Source: a virus
Length of the DNA stretch: 36,732 nucleotides
IMG/VR virus record: IMGVR_UViG_3300029922_000179
Direction: 5' to 3' (one strand)
Below, one piece after another: positions 1-36,732 of this stretch. The translations under genes and the position numbers were made by a program. The notes beneath the pieces are model-generated. The model ran no database searches. It was given only the letters and a program-made list of their open reading frames with translations, and was not told where the DNA came from. The first letter of the stretch is position 1; each line of letters begins with the position of its first letter.

Positions 1-67
1 CAACGGCGACGGCTCCGGCTACGGCTACGGCGACGGCCGCTACCCCTACAGTCTGGTGACGCGATGA
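1..67 (+). CDS. 3' fragment of a Gly-X repeat micro-protein (duplicate of the end of 36431..36688 because of the terminal overlap)
   Basis: Reads ...NGDGSGYGYGDGRYPYSLVTR then TGA at 65..67, overlapping the next ATG at 64. Confidence 0.55.
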   Translation, partial: NGDGSGYGYGDGRYPYSLVTR

Positions 68-111
68 AATATCCCAAAGGCTACGGCGACGGCTACGGCG
101 ACGGCTACGGC
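1..111. repeat. Terminal direct overlap; 1..111 is identical to 36622..36732 (signature of a circular or permuted assembly)
   Basis: Base-by-base comparison: both copies read caacggcgacggctccggctacggctacggcgacggccgctacccctacagtctggtgacgcgatgaaatatcccaaaggctacggcgacggctacggcgacggctacggc. Confidence 0.8.
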
Positions 112-231
112 TACGGCTACGGCAACGGCAACGGCTCCGGCAACGGCTACGGCTACGGCAACGGCAACGGCGACGGCTCCGGCTACGGCTACGGCGACGG
201 CCGCTACCCCTACAGTCTGGTGACGCGATGA
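64..231 (+). CDS. Gly-X repeat micro-protein, unit 4 (55 aa; below the ORF-track size cutoff)
   Basis: Hand translation gives MKYPKGYGDGYGDGYGYGYGNGNGSGNGYGYGNGNGDGSGYGYGDGRYPYSLVTR. ATGA overlaps at both ends, and a GGTGA SD-like motif sits 4 nt upstream of the ATG. Confidence 0.6.
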   Translation: MKYPKGYGDGYGDGYGYGYGNGNGSGNGYGYGNGNGDGSGYGYGDGRYPYSLVTR

Positions 232-485
232 AATATCCCAAAGGCTACGGCGACGGCTACGGCGACGGCTACGGCGACGGCTACGGCTACGGCAACGGCA
301 ACGGCTACGGCGACGGCTACGGCTACGGCGACGGCTACGGCTACGGCGACGGCTCCGGCTACGGCTACGGCGACGGCTCCGGCGACGGCTACGGCGACGG
401 CTCCGGCAACGGCTACGGCTACGGCTCCGGCGACGGCTCCGGCTACGGCTACGACCGCTACCCCTACAGTCTGGTGACGCGATGA
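228..485 (+). CDS. Gly-X repeat micro-protein, unit 5 (85 aa)
   Basis: ORF track. MKYPKG head, strict Gly-X core (X=Y/D/N/S), ...GYDRYPYSLVTR tail, ATGA overlaps with both neighbours. Confidence 0.6.
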   Translation: MKYPKGYGDGYGDGYGDGYGYGNGNGYGDGYGYGDGYGYGDGSGYGYGDGSGDGYGDGSGNGYGYGSGDGSGYGYDRYPYSLVTR

Positions 486-733
486 AATATCCCAAAGGCT
501 CCGGCGACGGCAACGGCTACGGCTACGGCAACGGCGACGGCTACGGCTACGGCTCCGGCTACGGCAACGGCGACGGCGACGGCTACGGCGACGGCTCCGG
601 CTCCGGCTACGGCAACGGCTACGGCAACGGCAACGGCAACGGCTACGGCAACGGCAACGGCTACGGCTACGGCAACGGCTACGGCAACGGCTCCGGCAAC
701 GGCCGCTACCCCTACAGTCTGGTGACGCGATGA
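482..733 (+). CDS. Gly-X repeat micro-protein, unit 6 (83 aa)
   Basis: ORF track. Same head, core and tail architecture; Asn-rich core; ATGA overlaps. Confidence 0.6.
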   Translation: MKYPKGSGDGNGYGYGNGDGYGYGSGYGNGDGDGYGDGSGSGYGNGYGNGNGNGYGNGNGYGYGNGYGNGSGNGRYPYSLVTR

Positions 734-927
734 AATATCCCAAAGGCTCCGGCGACGGCAACGGCTACGGCTACGGCAACGGCAACGGCGACGGCTACGG
801 CTACGGCAACGGCAACGGCTACGGCTCCGGCTACGGCAACGGCAACGGCTACGGCAACGGCAACGGCGACGGCTCCGGCTACGGCTACGGCGACGGCCGC
901 TACCCCTACAGTCTGGTGACGCGATGA
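730..927 (+). CDS. Gly-X repeat micro-protein, unit 7 (65 aa)
   Basis: ORF track. Same architecture; ATGA overlaps. Confidence 0.6.
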   Translation: MKYPKGSGDGNGYGYGNGNGDGYGYGNGNGYGSGYGNGNGYGNGNGDGSGYGYGDGRYPYSLVTR

Positions 928-1202
928 AATATCCCAAAGGCTACGGCGACGGCTACGGCGACGGCTACGGCTACGGCTCCGGCTACGGCAACGGCGACGG
1001 CTACGGCTACGGCGACGGCTCCGGCTACGGCTACGGCTACGGCTACGGCGACGGCGACGGCAACGGCGACGGCGACGGCTACGGCTCCGGCGACGGCTAC
1101 GGCGACGGCTCCGGCAACGGCTACGGCTACGGCTCCGGCTCCGGCGACGGCTCCGGCTACGGCTACGACCGCTACCCCTACAGCCTGGTGACGCGACCTT
1201 GA
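924..1202 (+). CDS. Gly-X repeat micro-protein, unit 8, last in the array (92 aa)
   Basis: ORF track. The tail differs only here (agc instead of agt for Ser; ends LVTRP then TGA) and no further ATGA junction follows. Confidence 0.6.
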   Translation: MKYPKGYGDGYGDGYGYGSGYGNGDGYGYGDGSGYGYGYGYGDGDGNGDGDGYGSGDGYGDGSGNGYGYGSGSGDGSGYGYDRYPYSLVTRP

Positions 1203-1227
1203 TTGAAGTGCATTTATTTGCTATATT
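1199..1227 (+). promoter_or_regulatory. Sigma70-like promoter with extended -10 (TTGATT-N17-TGcTATATT) immediately after the array
   Basis: TTGATT at 1199..1204, TG at 1219..1220, TATATT at 1222..1227. It shares the catttnnnTGCTATAwT context with the promoter at 31071..31098. Confidence 0.45.
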
Positions 1228-1258
1228 AAATTAACATTAATTACTATTAAATATAATT

Positions 1259-1552
1259 ATGACAACATATTCATTGAGATGTAGGAACAGCAAATGCCGC
1301 CACCGTCGCGTAGGAAAAACGCATCCATTCGACTATAAGGTGGTGCCTAAGTGCGAAAGCTGTGGAAAACGTGTCGGTTGGCGCATAGAGAAACGAGATT
1401 TTCAGAGAAAGAATCTGTGTTATTGCAGCAGTGTAGTTGGAAGCAACGGAAACTACCCGCACAAAAAAACTCACCCATTTTGCGATCAGCACCCGATGGG
1501 TATTGAAAATCAGATGCGTCGCTCTGGTTATTTTGATGAATGTCCATTTTAA
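1259..1552 (+). CDS. Cys-rich zinc-ribbon-like small protein
   Basis: ORF track. CRNSKC...CESCGKR pairs and a duplicated KTHPF motif. No clear SD. Confidence 0.5.
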   Translation: MTTYSLRCRNSKCRHRRVGKTHPFDYKVVPKCESCGKRVGWRIEKRDFQRKNLCYCSSVVGSNGNYPHKKTHPFCDQHPMGIENQMRRSGYFDECPF

Positions 1553-5561: not shown

Positions 5562-6005
5562 TCAATCCTTTACGTTAAACCATGTCGCTTCGAGCGCACG
5601 GCGTTTTACAAGACCAGGGAGAACACGGCCGCCACCGCGTACCCAGCGCGCAAACTCGGCATCGGCGCCAGCATAGTCGCCGTCATTGAGCTTGCGCAGC
5701 AATGTAGAACTCGCAAGATTTCCTGAGCCTTCGTTAAAAGTCCAATCGACCAGTGCGTCGAACTGGTGCTGCGTCAGTGGTACGGTGATCATCCGATTTA
5801 CCGCTGATTCGGCATCACCTATATCTTCAATTACCCAAGCATCTGACTGCTCCGGTGTGCAGGCATCTCCTTCCTTTACATCTCTTGTATGGCCGTACCC
5901 AATGGTCCAAGGTGATCCGTCAGTACCTGGATCTGGGTACGCGACTAGAGTGCGACCCTCACTCGCTTCTGTTAATGACTTTCTCGCTTCGTCTGAGTAT
6001 TTCAT
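5562..6005 (-). CDS. Endolysin, T4-lysozyme-like (GH24)
   Basis: EGRTLVAYPDPGTDGSPWTIGYGHT (Glu / Asp / Thr catalytic spacing) plus FDALVDWTFNEG and GLVKRR. ATG at 6005 overlaps the upstream stop (ATGA) and follows GAGGG. Confidence 0.85.
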   Translation of the reverse strand: MKYSDEARKSLTEASEGRTLVAYPDPGTDGSPWTIGYGHTRDVKEGDACTPEQSDAWVIEDIGDAESAVNRMITVPLTQHQFDALVDWTFNEGSGNLASSTLLRKLNDGDYAGADAEFARWVRGGGRVLPGLVKRRALEATWFNVKD

Positions 6006-6550
6006 GCCTTTACCCTCATGTCGCAAATCAAATGGATTCTATCTACCGATCCACCATTGAATACCTCGTGCTCAACCTTATTATCAACACGCCAGCATTC
6101 TCCAGCGACCATCTCTACTGTTTCGTCCCCGCATCTAAAAGTGCAGCCATTCGACGACTGTAGGCAAATATGAAACCGAGTATAGAATTCCGGGTTCTTA
6201 CCTTCATCACAGTGGGCTTTGATACCTTTTCCCGGAGAAATTCTAGAAATAAATACCCTACCTATTTTACTCGCGCCCAATTCTAGCTCGAGTCTTTCCA
6301 TCAACGATGTAGTATTCGACAAAATCGAATGGGCAGGATAATCAATGCACTCCAAATCATCGAACGCTTCACGCTCCCTGCCTTCAATAATTTCATTGAA
6401 TCTAATCCATATATCGTCTACGTCGCCGTGACCTGACCCTGGCATGTCTTTTCTAATGGTGTTCTGGTTCCACAAAAAATTATTACTCGATATTTGTTCG
6501 AGTGCTTTTTTTACATCAATGCCGCGACCGATCAGGCTAAAATTTTTCAT
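6002..6550 (-). CDS. Aspartyl/asparaginyl beta-hydroxylase-like 2OG-Fe(II) cupin oxygenase
   Basis: GIKAHCDEG...RFHICL...GECWRVDNKVEHEVFNGGSVDRIHLICD fits the HxD...H facial triad and family pattern. ATGA overlap with the upstream gene. Confidence 0.6.
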   Translation of the reverse strand: MKNFSLIGRGIDVKKALEQISSNNFLWNQNTIRKDMPGSGHGDVDDIWIRFNEIIEGREREAFDDLECIDYPAHSILSNTTSLMERLELELGASKIGRVFISRISPGKGIKAHCDEGKNPEFYTRFHICLQSSNGCTFRCGDETVEMVAGECWRVDNKVEHEVFNGGSVDRIHLICDMRVKA

Positions 6551-13867: not shown

Positions 13868-15235
13868 CTAGCTGGAAGAATTCGAAGAGCCGGAAGACGA
13901 ATACATTTTCGCAAGCGTTTGCATGAAATTCGTCATCGCTTGTTGGCTCTGTTGATCTGCCGTTGTTGCTGCTGTTACGCCAGCCAATTGCGGACCCTGC
14001 GCAACTCCTGCGGCGGATAGGCCTCCGCTCAGTTCATTATTGAGCGCCTGCTGCATCATCTGATTTTGTTGCACGCCGACCTGTGCCAATGCGCTTGCTT
14101 CCATCGATGAATTACTCAATCCAGCATTGGCATAATACTGCTTTATTTGCGCCTGTTGCTGCTGTCCGTATTGCGCGATGGATTGCTGATCCGCAGTGCT
14201 CAACGTGCCGCTCTGATAGTTCGTCAGTAACTGATTGGACACCGCCGATGCGGGAGCTGCGATAGCGTTCAACTGGTTTTGAGCAGTTGCCCCAGTCGTT
14301 GTCGCCGCAGTTTGCGCCTTTTTCGCCATCAGCAAGCTGGCTATTGGCGTAGCTATTCCGGCCACATCCTTGCCAACGCTTAACGCTGTTTTTCCATAGG
14401 CTCCAAGTTGCTTTAGCGCGCTTGTGATTGACGAATTACTGCCTTGGTTGTCTGCTCCAGAACCTGTTCCTGTACCGTAGGGAGTACCATTTTGAGCGGA
14501 ATCCGTGTCGAGAATGTCATTGGACACCGGAGTTGCTGGCGTCGACGGTAACGTAGCCGCTGATGCAGACTGAGCAGCAGCATTGGATACGTCGGCGGGC
14601 GGATTAGTGATTGTTCCAGTAGCGGCATTTGTAGCAGGGCTTGTATTGGGATTGACCGCGTCCGGAGTTACGCTTGCCGGTGCGGATGCAGAGTCTGCGG
14701 AGGATGGTAATGCGGCACTATCAGAAACAACCTGGGAATCTGCTCCTGATAAATCTGAAAGAGCTGAATTTTCAGAGCCTAAGCCAAGTCCGCTAGCTCC
14801 AGAACCGAAAGTAGGGGTAGAGGAATTAATCCCCATGCTGGAAGCGCTTGCCCCTAAATCAGAGCCTCCGACATTTCCATAAATGTCCGCAGAGGAAGAT
14901 CCCAGATTGGATAACCCTGATGCTCCCTGATAAATATTTCCTACATCCTGTAGATCTCCCAATGTTGACCCAGAGGAAGCGGATGGCATTGCCAGCGTAG
15001 CCCCCTCCGCAGCGCTAGCAGCACCAGCACCTGCGTCAGCAGCCGCCGCTCCAGCTCCAACATCGGCTGCGGCAGCACCGCCAGCCACATCGGCTGCGGC
15101 AGCACCGCCAGCCACATCGGCTGCGGCAGCACCGCCAGCCACATCGGCTGCTCCTGCCGCCCCAGCATCCGCAGCCGCTGCCTCTCCAGCAGTTTTAGCG
15201 CCCTCTTCAGCTCCAACAGATCCAGAAACACCCAT
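13868..15235 (-). CDS. Low-complexity Ala/Ser/Gly/Gln-rich virion protein (455 aa)
   Basis: ORF track. AGGAGA SD. Contains the AADVAGGAA x3 repeat. Confidence 0.5.
   Translation of the reverse strand: MGVSGSVGAEEGAKTAGEAAAADAGAAGAADVAGGAAAADVAGGAAAADVAGGAAAADVGAGAAAADAGAGAASAAEGATLAMPSASSGSTLGDLQDVGNIYQGASGLSNLGSSSADIYGNVGGSDLGASASSMGINSSTPTFGSGASGLGLGSENSALSDLSGADSQVVSDSAALPSSADSASAPASVTPDAVNPNTSPATNAATGTITNPPADVSNAAAQSASAATLPSTPATPVSNDILDTDSAQNGTPYGTGTGSGADNQGSNSSITSALKQLGAYGKTALSVGKDVAGIATPIASLLMAKKAQTAATTTGATAQNQLNAIAAPASAVSNQLLTNYQSGTLSTADQQSIAQYGQQQQAQIKQYYANAGLSNSSMEASALAQVGVQQNQMMQQALNNELSGGLSAAGVAQGPQLAGVTAATTADQQSQQAMTNFMQTLAKMYSSSGSSNSSS
15061..15151. repeat. Perfect 27-nt tandem repeat, about 3.4 copies (catcggctgcggcagcaccgccagcca)
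   Basis: Read directly. Encodes AADVAGGAA repeats in the 13868..15235 product. Confidence 0.85.
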
Positions 15236-31558: not shown

Positions 31559-32116
31559 ATGAAAACCACATTAAAAAAGATCAGAGAGTGTGCGGCATCC
31601 CCCGCCAGCTTACAAAAGTTATTGCGTTCGTTAGGTAAAACGAAAGCAGATGCCGAACCCGTTTCCATCATTCAGATTCTGGACAGCAACGGATTAGATG
31701 ATGCGCTGTGGTGTCTGCGTGCAGTGGAAGGTCATGACCGCGAGATTCGACTTTTTGCTGTGTGGTGCGCTCGCCAAGTCGAACATTTGATGATGGATGA
31801 GAGAAGCAAGAACGCATTGAACGTCGCCGAACGTTTCGCCAATGGCGAGGCATCGAAAGTCGAATTGGCCGCTGCCAAGGCCGCTGCCTTGGCAGCTGCC
31901 TGGGCCGCTGCCTGGGCCGCTGCCTGGGCCACTGCCAGGGCCGCTGCCTTGGACGCTGCCTGGGCCACTGCCAGGGCCACTACCAAGGCCGCTGCCTTGG
32001 ACGCTGCCTTGGACGCTGCCTGGGACGCTGCCTGGGCCACTGCCAGGGCCGCTCAAGAAAAAGAACTGCGCCGAGTCTGCGCAAAGATCGAAGCAGATTT
32101 GGCAGTAGGCGCATAG
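31559..32116 (+). CDS. Helical protein with a C-terminal Ala-rich tetrapeptide repeat, (A/D)(A/T)(A/T)(W/L/R/K) x15
   Basis: AGGAG SD before the ATG at 31559. The N-terminal part (ALWCLRAV...RLFAVWCARQVEHL...ALNVAERFANGEAS) resembles Imm5-like putative immunity proteins, from memory only and unverified. Confidence 0.55.
   Translation: MKTTLKKIRECAASPASLQKLLRSLGKTKADAEPVSIIQILDSNGLDDALWCLRAVEGHDREIRLFAVWCARQVEHLMMDERSKNALNVAERFANGEASKVELAAAKAAALAAAWAAAWAAAWATARAAALDAAWATARATTKAAALDAALDAAWDAAWATARAAQEKELRRVCAKIEADLAVGA
31868..32047 (+). repeat. 12-nt coding tandem repeat (GCC GCT GCC TGG and variants), 15 units
   Basis: Units read AAAK AAAL AAAW AAAW AAAW ATAR AAAL DAAW ATAR ATTK AAAL DAAL DAAW DAAW ATAR. 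Confidence 0.85.
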
Positions 32117-33670: not shown

Positions 33671-33949
33671 ATGAACACAAAAATCTTAGCAGTTTCCGGC
33701 GGTTTCTATTTCTTTGGAACAGAAATTACTGCGCAGGCCGATGGCTATATCGCCCTCAAAAACGCCGCGATGTTTGGTGGTTTTTCTGGTGGAAAAGGGT
33801 TGCCTGGGGTGGCGCGCGGCGATAAGTCGTCGACAGTCATACTGGACCAATTCGTTCCAGAAGAAGAGCTGCTGTTTCCAGTAACGGCCGTGTTTGCAAT
33901 TCTCCCTTCCATCGATCTCTATACCTTCAAAGGTACTACTTTACGATAA
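33671..33949 (+). CDS. Hypothetical protein (92 aa), first gene of the MoxR/vWA/array block
   Basis: AAGGAG lies 6 nt upstream of the ATG at 33671. Contains a GGFSGGKGLPGVARGD motif. Confidence 0.55.
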   Translation: MNTKILAVSGGFYFFGTEITAQADGYIALKNAAMFGGFSGGKGLPGVARGDKSSTVILDQFVPEEELLFPVTAVFAILPSIDLYTFKGTTLR

Positions 33950-34016: not shown

Positions 34017-34805
34017 ATGAGAAAATTATTCTCGCCACACATACCCGTCCTTTTAATTGGCCCTCCCGGCATAGGAAAAACGGAACGCGTACAGTCGTAT
34101 TTCGACCACGCCGAAGTCATGCTGACATCGACGCTTGTCGAGGAGGACATCGGCGGACTTCCCTATCGCGAGGGGGAATACGATTACCGCACCATTCCTG
34201 CTATGTTTCGTCGGCTAGAAGAAGCCAACACAAATGGTAAAACAACTGTTCTTTTTCTTGATGAGCTGGATAAGGCAAGGCGCTCTGTAGCTGACACGTT
34301 GCTAACCCTTATTGCCTCGCGTAAAGTTGGATCTGCTTCATTACCGAAAAATACGTGCATTGTTGCCGCTGGCAATCCCCCAGAGTTCGGCGGCGGTGAT
34401 GGAATTAGCGAGGCGATGCTATCACGATTTGCAGTCGTTGACTGCGAGCCGGATATTCTGGAATGGTGCGAATGGGCCAAGAAAAATTTCTCTCCCGAGA
34501 TAGCCAGCGGTGTGATCAATGCGATAAAGACGGGAGAAATGCCGATCTTCGATCGCACAGGAGAAGGTCTCGATAAACGTATTTCTTCTCCCAGAACTAT
34601 TGCGATGGCTCTTCGCGCCGTAGGAATGTTTTCGCCGGGAAGCGACGAACTTTCGCGATTGGTTCGGGGACTTCTTACGCCAGCAGTGGCAAGCCAGCTT
34701 CTCTATCTTGTGCGTAATCAACACAATGATGTACTTGATGTCGCTACTGGCTCTGCAAAAAGAAGCTCGTTAAAGAAGTCGGTTATACAACCGGTGAGAC
34801 TCTGA
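34017..34805 (+). CDS. MoxR-like AAA+ ATPase
   Basis: Walker A LLIGPPGIGKTE, Walker B VLFLDELDKA, sensor-1-like IVAAGNPPE. AGAGGAG SD. Confidence 0.8.
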   Translation: MRKLFSPHIPVLLIGPPGIGKTERVQSYFDHAEVMLTSTLVEEDIGGLPYREGEYDYRTIPAMFRRLEEANTNGKTTVLFLDELDKARRSVADTLLTLIASRKVGSASLPKNTCIVAAGNPPEFGGGDGISEAMLSRFAVVDCEPDILEWCEWAKKNFSPEIASGVINAIKTGEMPIFDRTGEGLDKRISSPRTIAMALRAVGMFSPGSDELSRLVRGLLTPAVASQLLYLVRNQHNDVLDVATGSAKRSSLKKSVIQPVRL

Positions 34806-34807
34806 TC

Positions 34808-35854
34808 ATGCTTACCGCTGCCCCTATAATTCGTAAGCCCCTGTCCTTAATTGGGGCGCCTGGCTTGACCGACTTTGTCAAGATATACATCGCTTCAGAA
34901 CTTAACAAGCGAGAATATCGTACGACCCTGCGTCATGAGCAAGCACATGTTTGGGCTGGCCATAACCGTAGACGGCCAAAAGATGCTGTCGACAAGTTGT
35001 GGCGCATCGCCTGCGAAATGGAAATTGCAAAGACGATCTACGACGATATTGATATTGAAAACATCAATGCTCCTCGTTCTAGATTATCTGGTGGGTATCT
35101 CCCTGATACGTTGGCGAATATGCCCGTAGGCATTATCTTAGCAGAAGACATCTACGAATGGCTTCTGCAACAATCGGAAAACGAGATACCAGACGTCGAA
35201 TGCACATGCTCCTGTACATGCAATTCTGACCGAGATGAGGAGTCAGATCAACCCGATGCGTCTACGATGGTAGAATCCGCGCGCGCGGCTCTGGACGATA
35301 TCGACAAGGTCGGGGATGCGCAAGCCGCAGTAACTAGCAACTATAATCACTTGAAGAACCGCACCCCTTCTCTCACTGACGAAGTAGACGCGGCTTTACG
35401 GGTGAGAGTAGAAAGAGAGCGCACACATAGACGGCCTTCTCGTAGGGACTCTCCAAATGTAATCCTTCCTGGCGCCGTATCGATTCCTAGACCGCCTCTG
35501 GTAGAGATATTCGTCGATAGAAGTGGCTCGTTCTCTTCTGACAAAACCGCCCAAGCTGAAATTCGGCTAAAAAAAATACTGGCAAAATACGGCGCTAGTA
35601 TAGCCGCTGATGTTTGGTTCTTTGGGAATGGTAGAATATCGGCCAGCGATATAAGAGGTGGAGGGGATACGCCATACCATCTAATCGCCCAACATCTCGC
35701 CGTCTCTTTGCCGAAGATAGCCATCGTAATTACCGACGATGATCCGGTAGAAAACTCAATTAAGCCGGTTTTAGGGCCAGTTATAATTTGCGTTCCCGTG
35801 GGATGCACATCTACAAATTTAGCCCGTCGCCTCGGCGGAAAAGACGTTGCATGA
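34808..35854 (+). CDS. Zincin-like metallopeptidase domain + vWA (MIDAS) domain protein (DUF2201-like architecture)
   Basis: HExxH in LRHEQAHVWAGH. MIDAS DxSxS in EIFVDRSGSFSS. Later AIVITDDD strand. Starts 2 nt after the MoxR stop, and its own stop overlaps the first array ATG (ATGA). Confidence 0.7.
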   Translation: MLTAAPIIRKPLSLIGAPGLTDFVKIYIASELNKREYRTTLRHEQAHVWAGHNRRRPKDAVDKLWRIACEMEIAKTIYDDIDIENINAPRSRLSGGYLPDTLANMPVGIILAEDIYEWLLQQSENEIPDVECTCSCTCNSDRDEESDQPDASTMVESARAALDDIDKVGDAQAAVTSNYNHLKNRTPSLTDEVDAALRVRVERERTHRRPSRRDSPNVILPGAVSIPRPPLVEIFVDRSGSFSSDKTAQAEIRLKKILAKYGASIAADVWFFGNGRISASDIRGGGDTPYHLIAQHLAVSLPKIAIVITDDDPVENSIKPVLGPVIICVPVGCTSTNLARRLGGKDVA

Positions 35855-36138
35855 AATATCCCAAAGGCTACGGCGACGGCGACGGCTACGGCGACGGCGA
35901 CGGCTACGGCTACGGCGACGGCTACGGCTACGGCGACGGCGACGGCGACGGCTACGGCGACGGCGACGGCTACGGCAACGGCAACGGCAACGGCGACGGC
36001 GACGGCTACGGCAACGGCAACGGCTACGGCGACGGCTCCGGCAACGGCTACGGCTACGGCTCCGGCGACGGCTACGGCTACGGCTACGGCTACGGCTACG
36101 GCGACGGCCGCTACCCCTACAGTCTGGTGACGCGATGA
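35851..36138 (+). CDS. Gly-X repeat micro-protein, unit 1 (95 aa)
   Basis: The ATG at 35851 overlaps the vWA gene stop (ATGA). Product is MKYPKG-(G-X)n-GDGRYPYSLVTR. The ORF-track start at 35788 lies inside the vWA gene and is unlikely. Confidence 0.6.
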   Translation: MKYPKGYGDGDGYGDGDGYGYGDGYGYGDGDGDGYGDGDGYGNGNGNGDGDGYGNGNGYGDGSGNGYGYGSGDGYGYGYGYGYGDGRYPYSLVTR

Positions 36139-36434
36139 AATATCCCAAAGGCTACGGCGACGGCTACGGCTACGGCTCCGGCAACGGCTACGGCTACGGC
36201 AACGGCTACGGCGACGGCTACGGCTACGGCGACGGCGACGGCGACGGCTACGGCGACGGCGACGGCTACGGCAACGGCAACGGCAACGGCGACGGCGACG
36301 GCTACGGCAACGGCAACGGCTACGGCGACGGCTCCGGCAACGGCTACGGCTACGGCTCCGGCGACGGCTACGGCTACGGCTCCGGCTACGGCTACGGCTA
36401 CGACCGCTACCCCTACAGTCTGGTGACGCGATGA
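36135..36434 (+). CDS. Gly-X repeat micro-protein, unit 2 (99 aa)
   Basis: ATG at 36135 inside the conserved junction. The ORF-track 35847 ORF merely reads through unit 1 in the LRRR frame. Confidence 0.6.
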   Translation: MKYPKGYGDGYGYGSGNGYGYGNGYGDGYGYGDGDGDGYGDGDGYGNGNGNGDGDGYGNGNGYGDGSGNGYGYGSGDGYGYGSGYGYGYDRYPYSLVTR

Positions 36435-36688
36435 AATATCCCAAAGGCTACGGCGACGGCAACGGCTACGGCGACGGCTACGGCGACGGCTACGGCGACG
36501 GCTACGGCTACGGCAACGGCAACGGCTACGGCGACGGCTACGGCTACGGCGACGGCTACGGCTACGGCGACGGCTCCGGCTACGGCTACGGCTCCGGCAA
36601 CGGCTACGGCTACGGCAACGGCAACGGCGACGGCTCCGGCTACGGCTACGGCGACGGCCGCTACCCCTACAGTCTGGTGACGCGATGA
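36431..36688 (+). CDS. Gly-X repeat micro-protein, unit 3 (85 aa)
   Basis: ORF track. Same architecture; ATGA overlaps. Confidence 0.6.
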   Translation: MKYPKGYGDGNGYGDGYGDGYGDGYGYGNGNGYGDGYGYGDGYGYGDGSGYGYGSGNGYGYGNGNGDGSGYGYGDGRYPYSLVTR

Positions 36689-36732
36689 AATATCCCAAAG
36701 GCTACGGCGACGGCTACGGCGACGGCTACGGC
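36685..36732 (+). CDS. 5' fragment of unit 4 (identical to 64..111)
   Basis: MKYPKGYGDGYGDGYG..., truncated by the window end. Confidence 0.55.
   Translation, partial: MKYPKGYGDGYGDGYG

Follow-up and report, generated by a model that had tools for sequence, protein, structure and literature searches.

The 36,732-nt viral DNA stretch IMGVR_UViG_3300029922_000179 from IMG/VR (hereafter, the window) carries a tandem array of micro-genes that encode strictly alternating Gly-X peptides, and these units are very probably translated as micro-proteins, judging by their comparison with arrays of related phages and prophages. The array lies beside three partner genes, coding for an unannotated 92-aa protein (p92), a MoxR-type AAA+ ATPase and a DUF2201-family protein with zincin-like and von Willebrand factor A (VWA) domains, and the persistence of this neighborhood across lineages makes functional coupling of the peptides to the three partners probable, albeit less firmly so than translation itself. 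The window is a phage genome whose minus strand encodes a portal protein, a lysozyme and structural proteins and whose plus strand has an early operon in which a helix-turn-helix protein gene, the array region and RecE/YqaJ-like, RecT and DUF1064 genes follow one another. An earlier, sequence-only reading of this DNA had recognized the coupled micro-genes, but it overlooked their linkage to the AAA_5, zincin plus VWA and p92 genes and miscounted the units across an invalid join.

Nine MKYPKG starts were located in the window by script (at 35851, 36135, 36431, 36685, 64, 228, 482, 730 and 924), all sharing the start sequence ATGAAATATCCCAAAGG. Eight of the corresponding plus-strand open reading frames (ORFs) are complete, with 95, 99 and 85 amino acids (aa) at the 3' window end and 55, 85, 83, 65 and 92 aa at the 5' end. 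The elements of the array are given below, where numbers beginning with L designate contigs or loci of the same phage and its relatives.

35851..36138, plus strand: Gly-X micro-gene of 95 aa, the first unit, anchored to the unique upstream flank
36135..36434, plus strand: Gly-X micro-gene of 99 aa, the second unit
36431..36688, plus strand: Gly-X micro-gene of 85 aa, the third unit
36685..36732, plus strand: start of a further unit, cut after 16 codons by the window end
2..67, plus strand: headless C-terminal tail of a unit, NGDGSGYGYGDGRYPYSLVTR and stop, cut by the window start
64..231, plus strand: Gly-X micro-gene of 55 aa, also in L005 at another array position
228..485, plus strand: Gly-X micro-gene of 85 aa, also in L007
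482..733, plus strand: Gly-X micro-gene of 83 aa, its exact product on 10 contigs from several samples
730..927, plus strand: Gly-X micro-gene of 65 aa, the order 83 aa then 65 aa also in L005, L006, L007 and L008
924..1202, plus strand: Gly-X micro-gene of 92 aa, the last unit, ending in VTRP and stop without ATGA, anchored to the unique downstream flank
1199..1260, plus strand: AT-rich gap with two sigma-70-like promoter matches (consensus match only)

All complete units conform to the formula MKYPKG-(Gly-X)n-RYPYSLVTR given by the sequence-only reading, with a DRYPYSLVTR ending in three of them and VTRP at the end of the last. Its estimate of roughly 270 Gly-X dipeptides, with X confined to Tyr, Asp, Asn or Ser, was also accurate: the eight complete units contain 269 pairs and no break of register, Gly is encoded by GGC in 269/269 pairs, and X is encoded by TAC (117), GAC (69), AAC (52) or TCC (31) and by no other codon. 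Tandem Repeats Finder reported a 6-nt periodicity over both array blocks. The stop TGA of each unit overlaps the following ATG (ATGA) and GGTGA lies 4 nt 5' of each ATG, both as previously described, and the TGA of the upstream 348-aa DUF2201 gene overlaps the ATG of unit 1 in the same manner. Since the coupling chain starts at the stop of the DUF2201 gene, the peptides would be made together with the DUF2201 protein in the early operon. No terminator-like site was found on the plus strand from the ATPase gene to the array, and the gap at 1199..1260 may mark the end of the array transcription unit or the start of the next one (zinc-finger-like ORF, RecE-like and RecT genes). The 45-nt junction is exactly repeated as claimed, although in eight copies and not seven, with no mismatch and a chance expectation of 0.

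The eight consecutive ORFs originally proposed were only partly upheld. Seven are present where they had been placed and the ORF at 64..231 is complete alone, but the window has nine starts and the unit thought to run from 36685 across the ends to 64..231 does not exist, the join of 36732 to 1 being out of frame (GGC+CAACGGC, giving ...GYGQRRRLRL...) with an extra C in the hexamer register. The window is thus a contig broken within the array at both ends, as evidenced by the cut unit at 36685, the headless tail at 2..67 and the out-of-frame join.

Relatives were fetched by similarity to the 348-aa protein. Amongst them, a Cupriavidus oxalaticus prophage in a 4.02-Mb chromosomal record (CP196448.1) carries five ATGA-coupled units of 99, 75, 119, 77 and 73 aa, and the draft genomes of Luteibacter sp. 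Sphag1AF and Dyella sp. SG609 carry two units each. Nine units were found inside a 43.5-kb contig (L021/L071; 43,536 nt), at least six inside a 73.7-kb contig (L036), four in L018 and three in L014. The host range of the module appears broad: the nine-unit array is part of a 37%-GC locus on a contig binned as Leptospira sp. (P0324) and a module copy in L024 is on a contig binned to Patescibacteria (P0309), both hosts being assigned by binning of phage contigs into metagenome-assembled genomes only, and the remaining copies are in Burkholderiales and Xanthomonadales prophages.

The same alternation is written in three codon dialects, namely GGC with TAC/GAC/AAC in the window, Cupriavidus, L014, L018 and L036, GGC with TAT/GAT/AAT/ACT/TTT in Luteibacter, and GGA with TAT/GAT/AAT in L021. 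Junction DNA is unrelated between lineages and comes in three designs, a -4 nt overlap (n=41), a +4 nt spacer (n=24) and a +15/16 nt spacer (n=5). In the 84 distinct complete units compared, which measure 29-133 aa with a median of 85, the N-terminus reads M-x-[Y/L]-P-x-G or, in the lineage of L021, MSSPLSR-x-G, and the C-terminus is a handle of the form G-[R/K/N/Q]-Y-P-[Y/H/F]-x-[L/M]-[V/I]-[T/I]-[R/K] that extends 5-6 residues past YPY. Y-P is present in 82/84 units, with Y (71), H (11) or F (2) as the next residue, and the L/M and V/I positions are kept in 69/84 and 72/84 units, respectively. The composition of X over seven arrays of different lineages was 41-51% Tyr, 14-28% Asp and 13-31% Asn, with lineage-specific Ser, Thr, Phe or His, and NAY codons accounted for 74-99.5% of X across lineages. 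One unit of L014 (8319..8564) is largely (Gly-His)n, MKYPDGHGHGNGHGHGHGHGHGDG..., and its His makes up, with Tyr, Asp and Asn, the whole NAY codon box, the amino acids of queuosine tRNAs. Because the Gly-X frame, the P-x-G start and the Y-P-[Y/H/F]-x-hydrophobic tail are kept across three dialects and three junction designs, the comparison indicates that selection acts on the peptide.

The repeat could also be thought to act at the level of DNA or RNA, as a recombination hotspot, a G-rich structure or a spacer in which the ORFs are incidental. The perfect hexamer periodicity and the complete lack of synonymous variation within one array would fit such a role, as would the fact that changes at the variable position 4 of the hexamer are silent in frame +2 (Ala GCN) and on the minus strand (Val GTN), where long antisense ORFs exist. 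The GC content of the array (0.71-0.73) is also far above that of the genome in the window and in L036, where a 71% core sits in a 44% locus. Nevertheless, the DNA differs across lineages and only the Gly-X frame and the terminal peptide motifs are conserved; the frame +2 repeat itself changes, from Ala-Thr in the window to Ala-Met in Luteibacter, and no frame other than Gly-X is consistent through an array because the reading frame changes at every junction. The window yielded neither an Rfam family nor a tRNA, and the mRNA of one unit (36431..36688, 73% GC) was predicted to be less structured than 200/200 dinucleotide-preserving shuffles (z=+5.0), the GGC plus NAC codon set having almost no self-complementary words; the codon set as such may be under selection or shared horizontally. 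The sequence-only reading had regarded the units as separately translated micro-genes and had held that a DNA repeat conserved without its frame would point to a DNA- or RNA-level role. The opposite was observed, with repeat and junction differing in relatives while the frame and peptide ends are kept, so that this alternative is largely refuted by the comparison and highly improbable.

Three observations temper the coding interpretation. With zero synonymous variation in the array (269/269 GGC), a comparison of paralogues can neither settle the frame nor show purifying selection, so a comparison between lineages was needed and the coding case rests on it. The last 3-4 residues of the handle share DNA with the ribosome-binding region of the next gene, and the DUF2201 gene ends in handle-like residues (VVTR or LII before the stop) in several lineages; for these two reasons, part of the handle may have been shaped by translation signals and not by protein function. 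The YPY-x-L part is the motif of the handle that can safely be assigned to the protein level.

The reliability of the array as assembled was evaluated separately from its existence. A public collection has the 348-aa protein in 69 indexed blocks, and 43/69 hold contigs of 20-50 kb. In the other assemblies compared, the flanks are 100% identical to those of the window and the array is threaded differently in each, as the following paths of unit labels show.

Window: U06-U07-U08-… at the 3' end and …-U01-U02-U03-U04-U05 at the 5' end
L007: U06-U02-U03-U04-(contig end)
L005: …U11-U03-U04-U01-U05
L006: …U11-U03-U04-U05
L002: only two units, within a 35.4-kb contig
L039 and L040: first units of 133 and 87 aa, respectively

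Because the path through the units differs among independent assemblies of this phage, the copy number and order of the units in this window are unreliable. What was reproducible across assemblies was the first unit (an identical copy follows the 348-aa gene in L003, L004 and L007, and a 1-residue variant in L002), the last unit (which precedes the RecE-like gene in L002, L005 and L006) and the pair of the 83-aa unit followed by the 65-aa unit. The units resemble mosaics of one another. The exact product of the 99-aa unit had no other record by exact look-up and its initial ~40 residues are those of unit 2 of L003/L004; this unit may be a mosaic or an assembly path. In L001 (1..440) and L003 (11328..11711), both from the same metagenome series, an array unit runs into or out of unrelated genes carrying GGCTACGGCGAC-type tracts, one product ending in ...GKSYEIETKDFDLRGIIAVAQITSLLLGRD, and these contigs are therefore chimeras; GGCTACGGCGAC-type DNA is present in other genes of the community, and shared tracts thus mislead assemblers. 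Many contigs of relatives, including two from Burkholderia cepacia, stop 30-350 nt into the first unit, the typical mark of a repeat that cannot be spanned by short reads.

Contigs of this phage and of many relatives that end inside the array, a unit order that differs despite identical flanks, and the collapsed (two-unit) and chimeric versions could together suggest that the multi-unit array is itself an artefact of assembling a low-complexity region. This is extremely improbable, given that arrays of 2-9 units are found fully inside contigs, including the Cupriavidus oxalaticus chromosomal record and two isolate drafts, and that the 83-aa-then-65-aa sub-order recurs in five assemblies of one phage, four of them from other samples. 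The existence of the arrays is safe, and doubt is confined to the exact count and order in this window.

The three partner genes immediately precede the array in the window and are listed here.

33671..33949, plus strand: p92, a conserved 92-aa partner of an unannotated family (GGFYFFG...MFGGFSGGKGLPGVARG...LYTFKGTTLR)
34017..34805, plus strand: MoxR-type AAA+ ATPase (AAA_5; PF07728, E=1.3e-12; phrog_1297 ATPase, E=2.3e-31)
34808..35854, plus strand: DUF2201-family protein of 348 aa, with an N-terminal zincin-like domain (HEQAH...E72) and a C-terminal VWA domain with a metal ion-dependent adhesion site (MIDAS)

The p92 protein, with its Gly/aromatic motifs GGFYFFG and MFGGFSGGKG, is the best-conserved part of the module: its copies, located beside the ATPase and DUF2201 genes in nearly all related loci, are 47-85% identical, whereas DUF2201 falls to ~30% identity over the same lineages. 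It had no Pfam, PHROG or PDB match, none of its homologues (160/160) has an informative name, and tblastn against GenBank phages and plasmids (PLSDB) returned no match. An 'RGD' in p92 was considered as a MIDAS ligand and rejected, its Asp not being conserved (RGA, SNR and KGS variants in the alignment). Walker A (GPPGIGKT) and Walker B (LDELD) motifs are visible in the alignment of the ATPase, whose gene adjoins the DUF2201 gene in all lineages examined. The DUF2201 protein of the window itself is below Pfam reporting, but matches to PF13203 (putative metallopeptidase) and PF09967 (VWA-like) were obtained with homologues of 30-62% identity. Alignment of 25 homologues (34-65% identity) showed that H43, E44, H47, H52 and E72 are invariant, which corresponds to the zincin site, and so are D237, S239, S241 and D310 of the MIDAS, with T288 nearly invariant. 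An AlphaFold2 (AF2) model of the protein (predicted local distance difference test, pLDDT, 80) has a C-terminal VWA fold that Foldseek matched in the PDB to von Willebrand factor A2 and integrin I domains, and the model aligns full-length to uncharacterized 'metallopeptidase/VWA-like' proteins of Pseudomonas phage Zuri, Bacillus phage PBS1, Klebsiella phage FBKp27 and cyanophage S-TIM5. No match for the protein was obtained by tblastn against GenBank phages. By these sequence features, the ATPase and DUF2201 pair qualifies as a MoxR-type AAA+/VWA system.

A Gly-X gene with a YP[Y/H/F] handle was present in almost every DUF2201-homologue locus (29-100% identity) with enough flank. A degenerate handle pattern run over IMG/VR gave true hits exclusively next to DUF2201, two further hits (L032 and L035) being discarded as out-of-frame chance matches. 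The linkage is found in the following gene orders.

p92-AAA-DUF2201-[GX]n: the window and most Proteobacterial prophages
p92-[GX]1-2-AAA-DUF2201: L058, L060 and L065
AAA-p92-DUF2201-[GX]≥6: L036
DUF2201-p92-GX: L024
[GX]2 upstream and [GX]3-8 downstream: L014 and L070

The best evidence at hand for joint action of the peptides and the partner proteins is that this linkage outlasts the shuffling of gene order and divergence to ~30% identity. A different possibility is that the peptides act alone as early host-directed effectors, for example as sticky Tyr-rich decoys or sponges, as acidic mimics of nucleic acids that counter restriction or other defences, or as metal binders, and that they are linked to the ATPase/VWA genes only because the early operon offers all of them the same slot for accessory genes. 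The location of the array beside RecE/RecT-like genes, in the early region where lambdoid phages keep anti-defence and host-takeover genes, is compatible with this, and several units are strongly acidic (down to -11.5). Many unrelated small phage-like proteins moreover carry fused (G-Y/D/N/S)n tracts, so such a tract may be a generic module. However, position alone can hardly account for a linkage to p92, AAA_5 and DUF2201 that survives at least four gene orders and ~30% identity, some units carry almost no net charge, and no PADLOC or other defence-related match was obtained. Effectors acting alone are therefore unlikely.

In the window, the unit products are 5.7-9.9 kDa (55-99 aa), with an MKYPKG N-terminus that has no hydrophobic stretch and no signal peptide. 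Their cores have no Cys, Lys, Arg or hydrophobic residues, in agreement with the sequence-only reading; its description of the peptides as strongly acidic applies to some units, but the net charge of a unit lies between -0.5 and -11.5, and others are near neutral. Tyr makes up ~18-24% of the residues in every unit, and Asp and Asn trade places.

Searches of Pfam, PHROG and NCBIfam with several units, and of PADLOC with one, returned only sub-threshold low-complexity matches (TrAA12, KRTAP, SGP, ser-rich). In PADLOC-DB, DolB/IetA was a marginal match for the ATPase (E ~0.005-0.009) and none was found for DUF2201, p92 or the peptide. The exact junction 40-mer had no match in IMG/VR, and neither did 10 kb of the window by megablast against GenBank phages. 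None of the eight complete unit products of the window was found by exact look-up in a collection of 15 billion proteins, yet the 83-aa unit is on record at gene positions on the 10 contigs noted above. An exhaustive profile search with the units gave 536 hits, mostly unrelated GY-tract proteins; the homology was mostly compositional, to longer proteins with (GYGDG)n tracts, and only P0018 (on a chimeric contig), P0433 and P0402 were member-like. The empty exact look-up and the mostly unrelated profile hits mean that the units are largely missing from protein catalogues. Literature searches with full-text queries, including literal peptide strings, DUF2201, and MoxR with vWA and prophage, yielded nothing relevant (subscription-only texts were not covered). 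The earlier statement that no such family has been described thus holds within the resources searched (Pfam, PHROG, NCBIfam, PADLOC, PDB, GenBank phages and literature), where the array-plus-module appears to be new; the ATPase-VWA chassis is a known machine type.

The same searches showed hundreds of small (~100-200 aa) metagenomic proteins, often in a phage context, in which (G-Y/D/N/S)n tracts are fused to diverse globular domains (P0001-P0120, P0334-P0465; L038). These domains include DUF7666, a recurrent 'GAC..G' N-terminal domain and a C-terminal HxxHW domain, and the YPY handle was present in none of these proteins. The GY tract may be a general phage low-complexity module.

The best explanation we can offer for the module, by analogy and with the balance of probability about even, is that the disordered Tyr-rich peptides are clients of an ATPase-VWA-zincin machine and are made early in infection. 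In MoxR-VWA pairs (CbbQ-CbbO, NorQ-NorD, RavA-ViaA), the VWA adaptor holds a client for the ATPase, often by a carboxylate at the MIDAS. The phage module consists of p92, the MoxR-type AAA_5 ATPase, the zincin/VWA (DUF2201) protein and one to about ten Gly-X peptides, each built of an N-terminal M-x-[Y/L]-P-x-G cap, a core predicted to be disordered, in which Gly alternates with Tyr/Asp/Asn (and Ser in the window), and the C-terminal handle. A ribosome ending one unit would re-initiate on the next via the ATGA overlap and the GGTGA Shine-Dalgarno sequence. By the same analogy, the peptides would be bound through their handle and/or Asp side chains at the VWA MIDAS or by p92, be remodelled by the ATPase and possibly lose their caps to the zincin domain. 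Tyr 'stickers' and Gly/Asn/Asp 'spacers' drive self-association of the FUS type, and strict Gly-X alternation is the basis of silk beta-sheet stacking; the multivalent Tyr/Gly cores might likewise come together inside the infected cell as a condensate-like or cross-beta material. Tandem copies would raise the dose and diversify length and charge. Arrays would grow and shrink by slippage or unequal recombination, which could account for the lack of synonymous variation within an array. The roles suggested by the sequence-only reading (a polymer secreted on lysis, a condensate, a Ca2+ binder or effector peptides with antimicrobial parallels) are conjectural; its idea of a dosage set by copy number is plausible, although the assemblies disagree on that number.

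As an extension of the client interpretation, we favor by analogy an ATP-controlled self-assembling material or scaffold formed early in infection, but this specific model is rather doubtful. We also consider it doubtful, taking both parts together, that in phages of several bacterial phyla an ATP-driven machine of the ATPase, the zincin-VWA adaptor and p92 loads, trims or organizes Gly-Tyr micro-proteins early in infection so that an intracellular low-complexity material (condensate, gel or silk-like cross-beta scaffold) is formed, and that rapid recombination of the repeats adjusts the copy number of the array as well as the length and charge of its units.

Several observations weigh against a coupled machine and its clients. 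Asp content varies from 4 to 15 per unit and charge varies with it, which weakens a simple model in which Asp binds the MIDAS. The peptides are predicted to be disordered, and the AF2 model of one unit (pLDDT 36.6, no secondary structure) is, at this low confidence, weak evidence for it. We know of no Gly-X neighbors for the distant DUF2201 proteins of isolated phages. A 4.5-kb contig (L017=L047) has p92-AAA-DUF2201 and no Gly-X gene in the available sequence. In Delftia phage RG-2014, the DUF2201 gene is followed by a dUTPase gene (PMC5735904).

The conserved flanks, hypervariable cores and tandem precursor-like genes next to a predicted metallopeptidase also bring to mind ribosomally synthesized and post-translationally modified peptides (RiPPs). 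The cap and handle would be recognition sequences, the zincin would excise the core, and the cores, active at lysis or intracellularly, would form a peptide library from multiple precursor genes, as arrays of prochlorosin- and cyanobactin-like precursors do in combining conserved ends with variable cores near a protease. In contrast to those arrays, the phage array has no exporter, its 'leader' is only 5-8 residues, and its core chemistry is atypical, with no Cys and little Ser/Thr. No radical SAM, YcaO or lanthipeptide synthetase-type enzyme was found by Pfam/PHROG in the window or amongst the neighbors of relatives (L002, L025, L027, L029). The sole candidate modifier, an aspartyl/asparaginyl beta-hydroxylase-like gene adjoining the phage lysozyme gene (6002..6550, minus strand; PF05118, E=2.4e-21), would be an attractive partner for Asp/Asn-rich cores, but the idea is unsupported, as the gene was not found near arrays of other lineages within ~0.5 Mb of loci. 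A RiPP-like function is therefore quite unlikely, more so than lone effectors.

The client interpretation draws on established MoxR AAA+/VWA systems (CbbQ-CbbO, NorQ-NorD, RavA-ViaA and CoxD-CoxE), which act on a specific client encoded nearby or elsewhere. The phage module resembles them in placing a small AAA_5 ATPase gene next to a gene for a VWA protein with an intact MIDAS. It differs in that the VWA protein has an N-terminal zincin-like domain, that p92 is a constant partner, and that the module is phage-borne with tandem low-complexity micro-proteins as the candidate client; to our knowledge, no Gly-X-type client has been described for these systems. Gas-vesicle loci similarly combine tandem copies of a very small protein gene (gvpA) with a MoxR-family AAA_5 ATPase (GvpN); GvpA self-assembles, and its gene copy number is thought to raise the dose. 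This is an analogy only, as GvpA is hydrophobic, folded and near-uniform in length, the loci have no VWA-zincin partner, and there is no sequence relation.

Other resemblances are compositional. Silk fibroin (GAGAGS/GAGAGY) has the strict Gly-X alternation seen here over 269 pairs, with Tyr and Ser among X, but its X is mostly Ala/Ser in a giant secreted protein, whereas the phage X is Tyr, Asp, Asn or Ser without Ala, in small peptides with no signal sequence and no beta-structure predicted by AF2. The keratin-associated KRTAP family (PF11759), whose genes are tandemly clustered, and the sulphur-globule proteins (SGPs; PF17228), a bacterial precedent for small Gly/Tyr-rich structural proteins, share the small size (6-10 kDa) and Gly/Tyr richness of the units. 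They lack the strict alternation and the YPY handle, SGPs have signal peptides, and the matches were sub-threshold (E 0.8-2.7 at cut-offs of 21-27 bits; 9-10.7 bits against 21.1 for PF11759). The [G/S]Y[G/S] domains of FUS/hnRNP proteins have the same composition of Tyr 'stickers' and Gly/Ser/Asn/Asp 'spacers' and the same predicted disorder, although they are eukaryotic parts of large RNA-binding proteins. Nematode and arthropod Gly/Tyr-rich peptides (NLP/CNC) are also encoded in tandem clusters of small genes; unlike the phage units, they are cationic and secreted with a signal peptide. RTX/beta-roll repeats (GGxGxDxUx) have a period of 9 and not 2, the phage cores have no hydrophobic residue, and there was no RTX Pfam match. 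Diversification by a diversity-generating retroelement (DGR) was rejected on finding ANC variants (AGC/ACC/ATC) in 0/269 X codons, and no reverse transcriptase family was present among the Pfam hits of the window and L002 genes, in a search that was not exhaustive. On these comparisons, the units belong to none of the look-alike classes (silk, KRTAP, SGP, FUS-like, nematode peptides, RTX, RiPP or DGR).

If the peptides are made, they represent a widespread phage gene module that annotation pipelines have largely missed, and a candidate class of early phage functions. A client role would mean that a chaperone-type machine of the classic MoxR-VWA design serves a client without precedent, the tandem Gly-X micro-proteins, and would provide a tractable bacterial and phage system for studying how an ATPase handles Tyr/Gly low-complexity sequence; were a material formed, viruses would have a 'material gene' system for which no counterpart has been described. 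The module is directly testable in cultured lysogens (Cupriavidus oxalaticus, Luteibacter sp. Sphag1AF, Dyella sp. SG609 and Burkholderia cepacia). As a practical warning, Gly-X arrays break, collapse or chimerize short-read assemblies of otherwise complete phage genomes.

Additional features of the window were observed outside the array and its partners. Directly 3' of the array, at 1259..1552 on the plus strand, is a 97-aa Cys-rich ORF with CxxC pairs, zinc-finger-like and assigned to phrog_17384 (unknown function); it has a weak match to part of DrmA (E=5e-4) and was not found after the arrays of other lineages. In the structural region, a 455-aa Ala/Gly/Ser-rich ORF (13868..15235, minus strand) with no Pfam family contains a perfect 27-nt repeat (15060..15166, 3.4 copies) that encodes AADVAGGAA units near its N-terminus. 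A second low-complexity protein of the early operon, of 185 aa (31559..32116, plus strand), contains a 12-nt repeat of 15.6 copies (31867..32053), and its C-terminal half consists of four-residue repeats of the AAAW / AAAL / ATAR type. By eye, the N-terminal part of this protein resembles the N-terminal domains of the GY-tract proteins P0010 and P0336.

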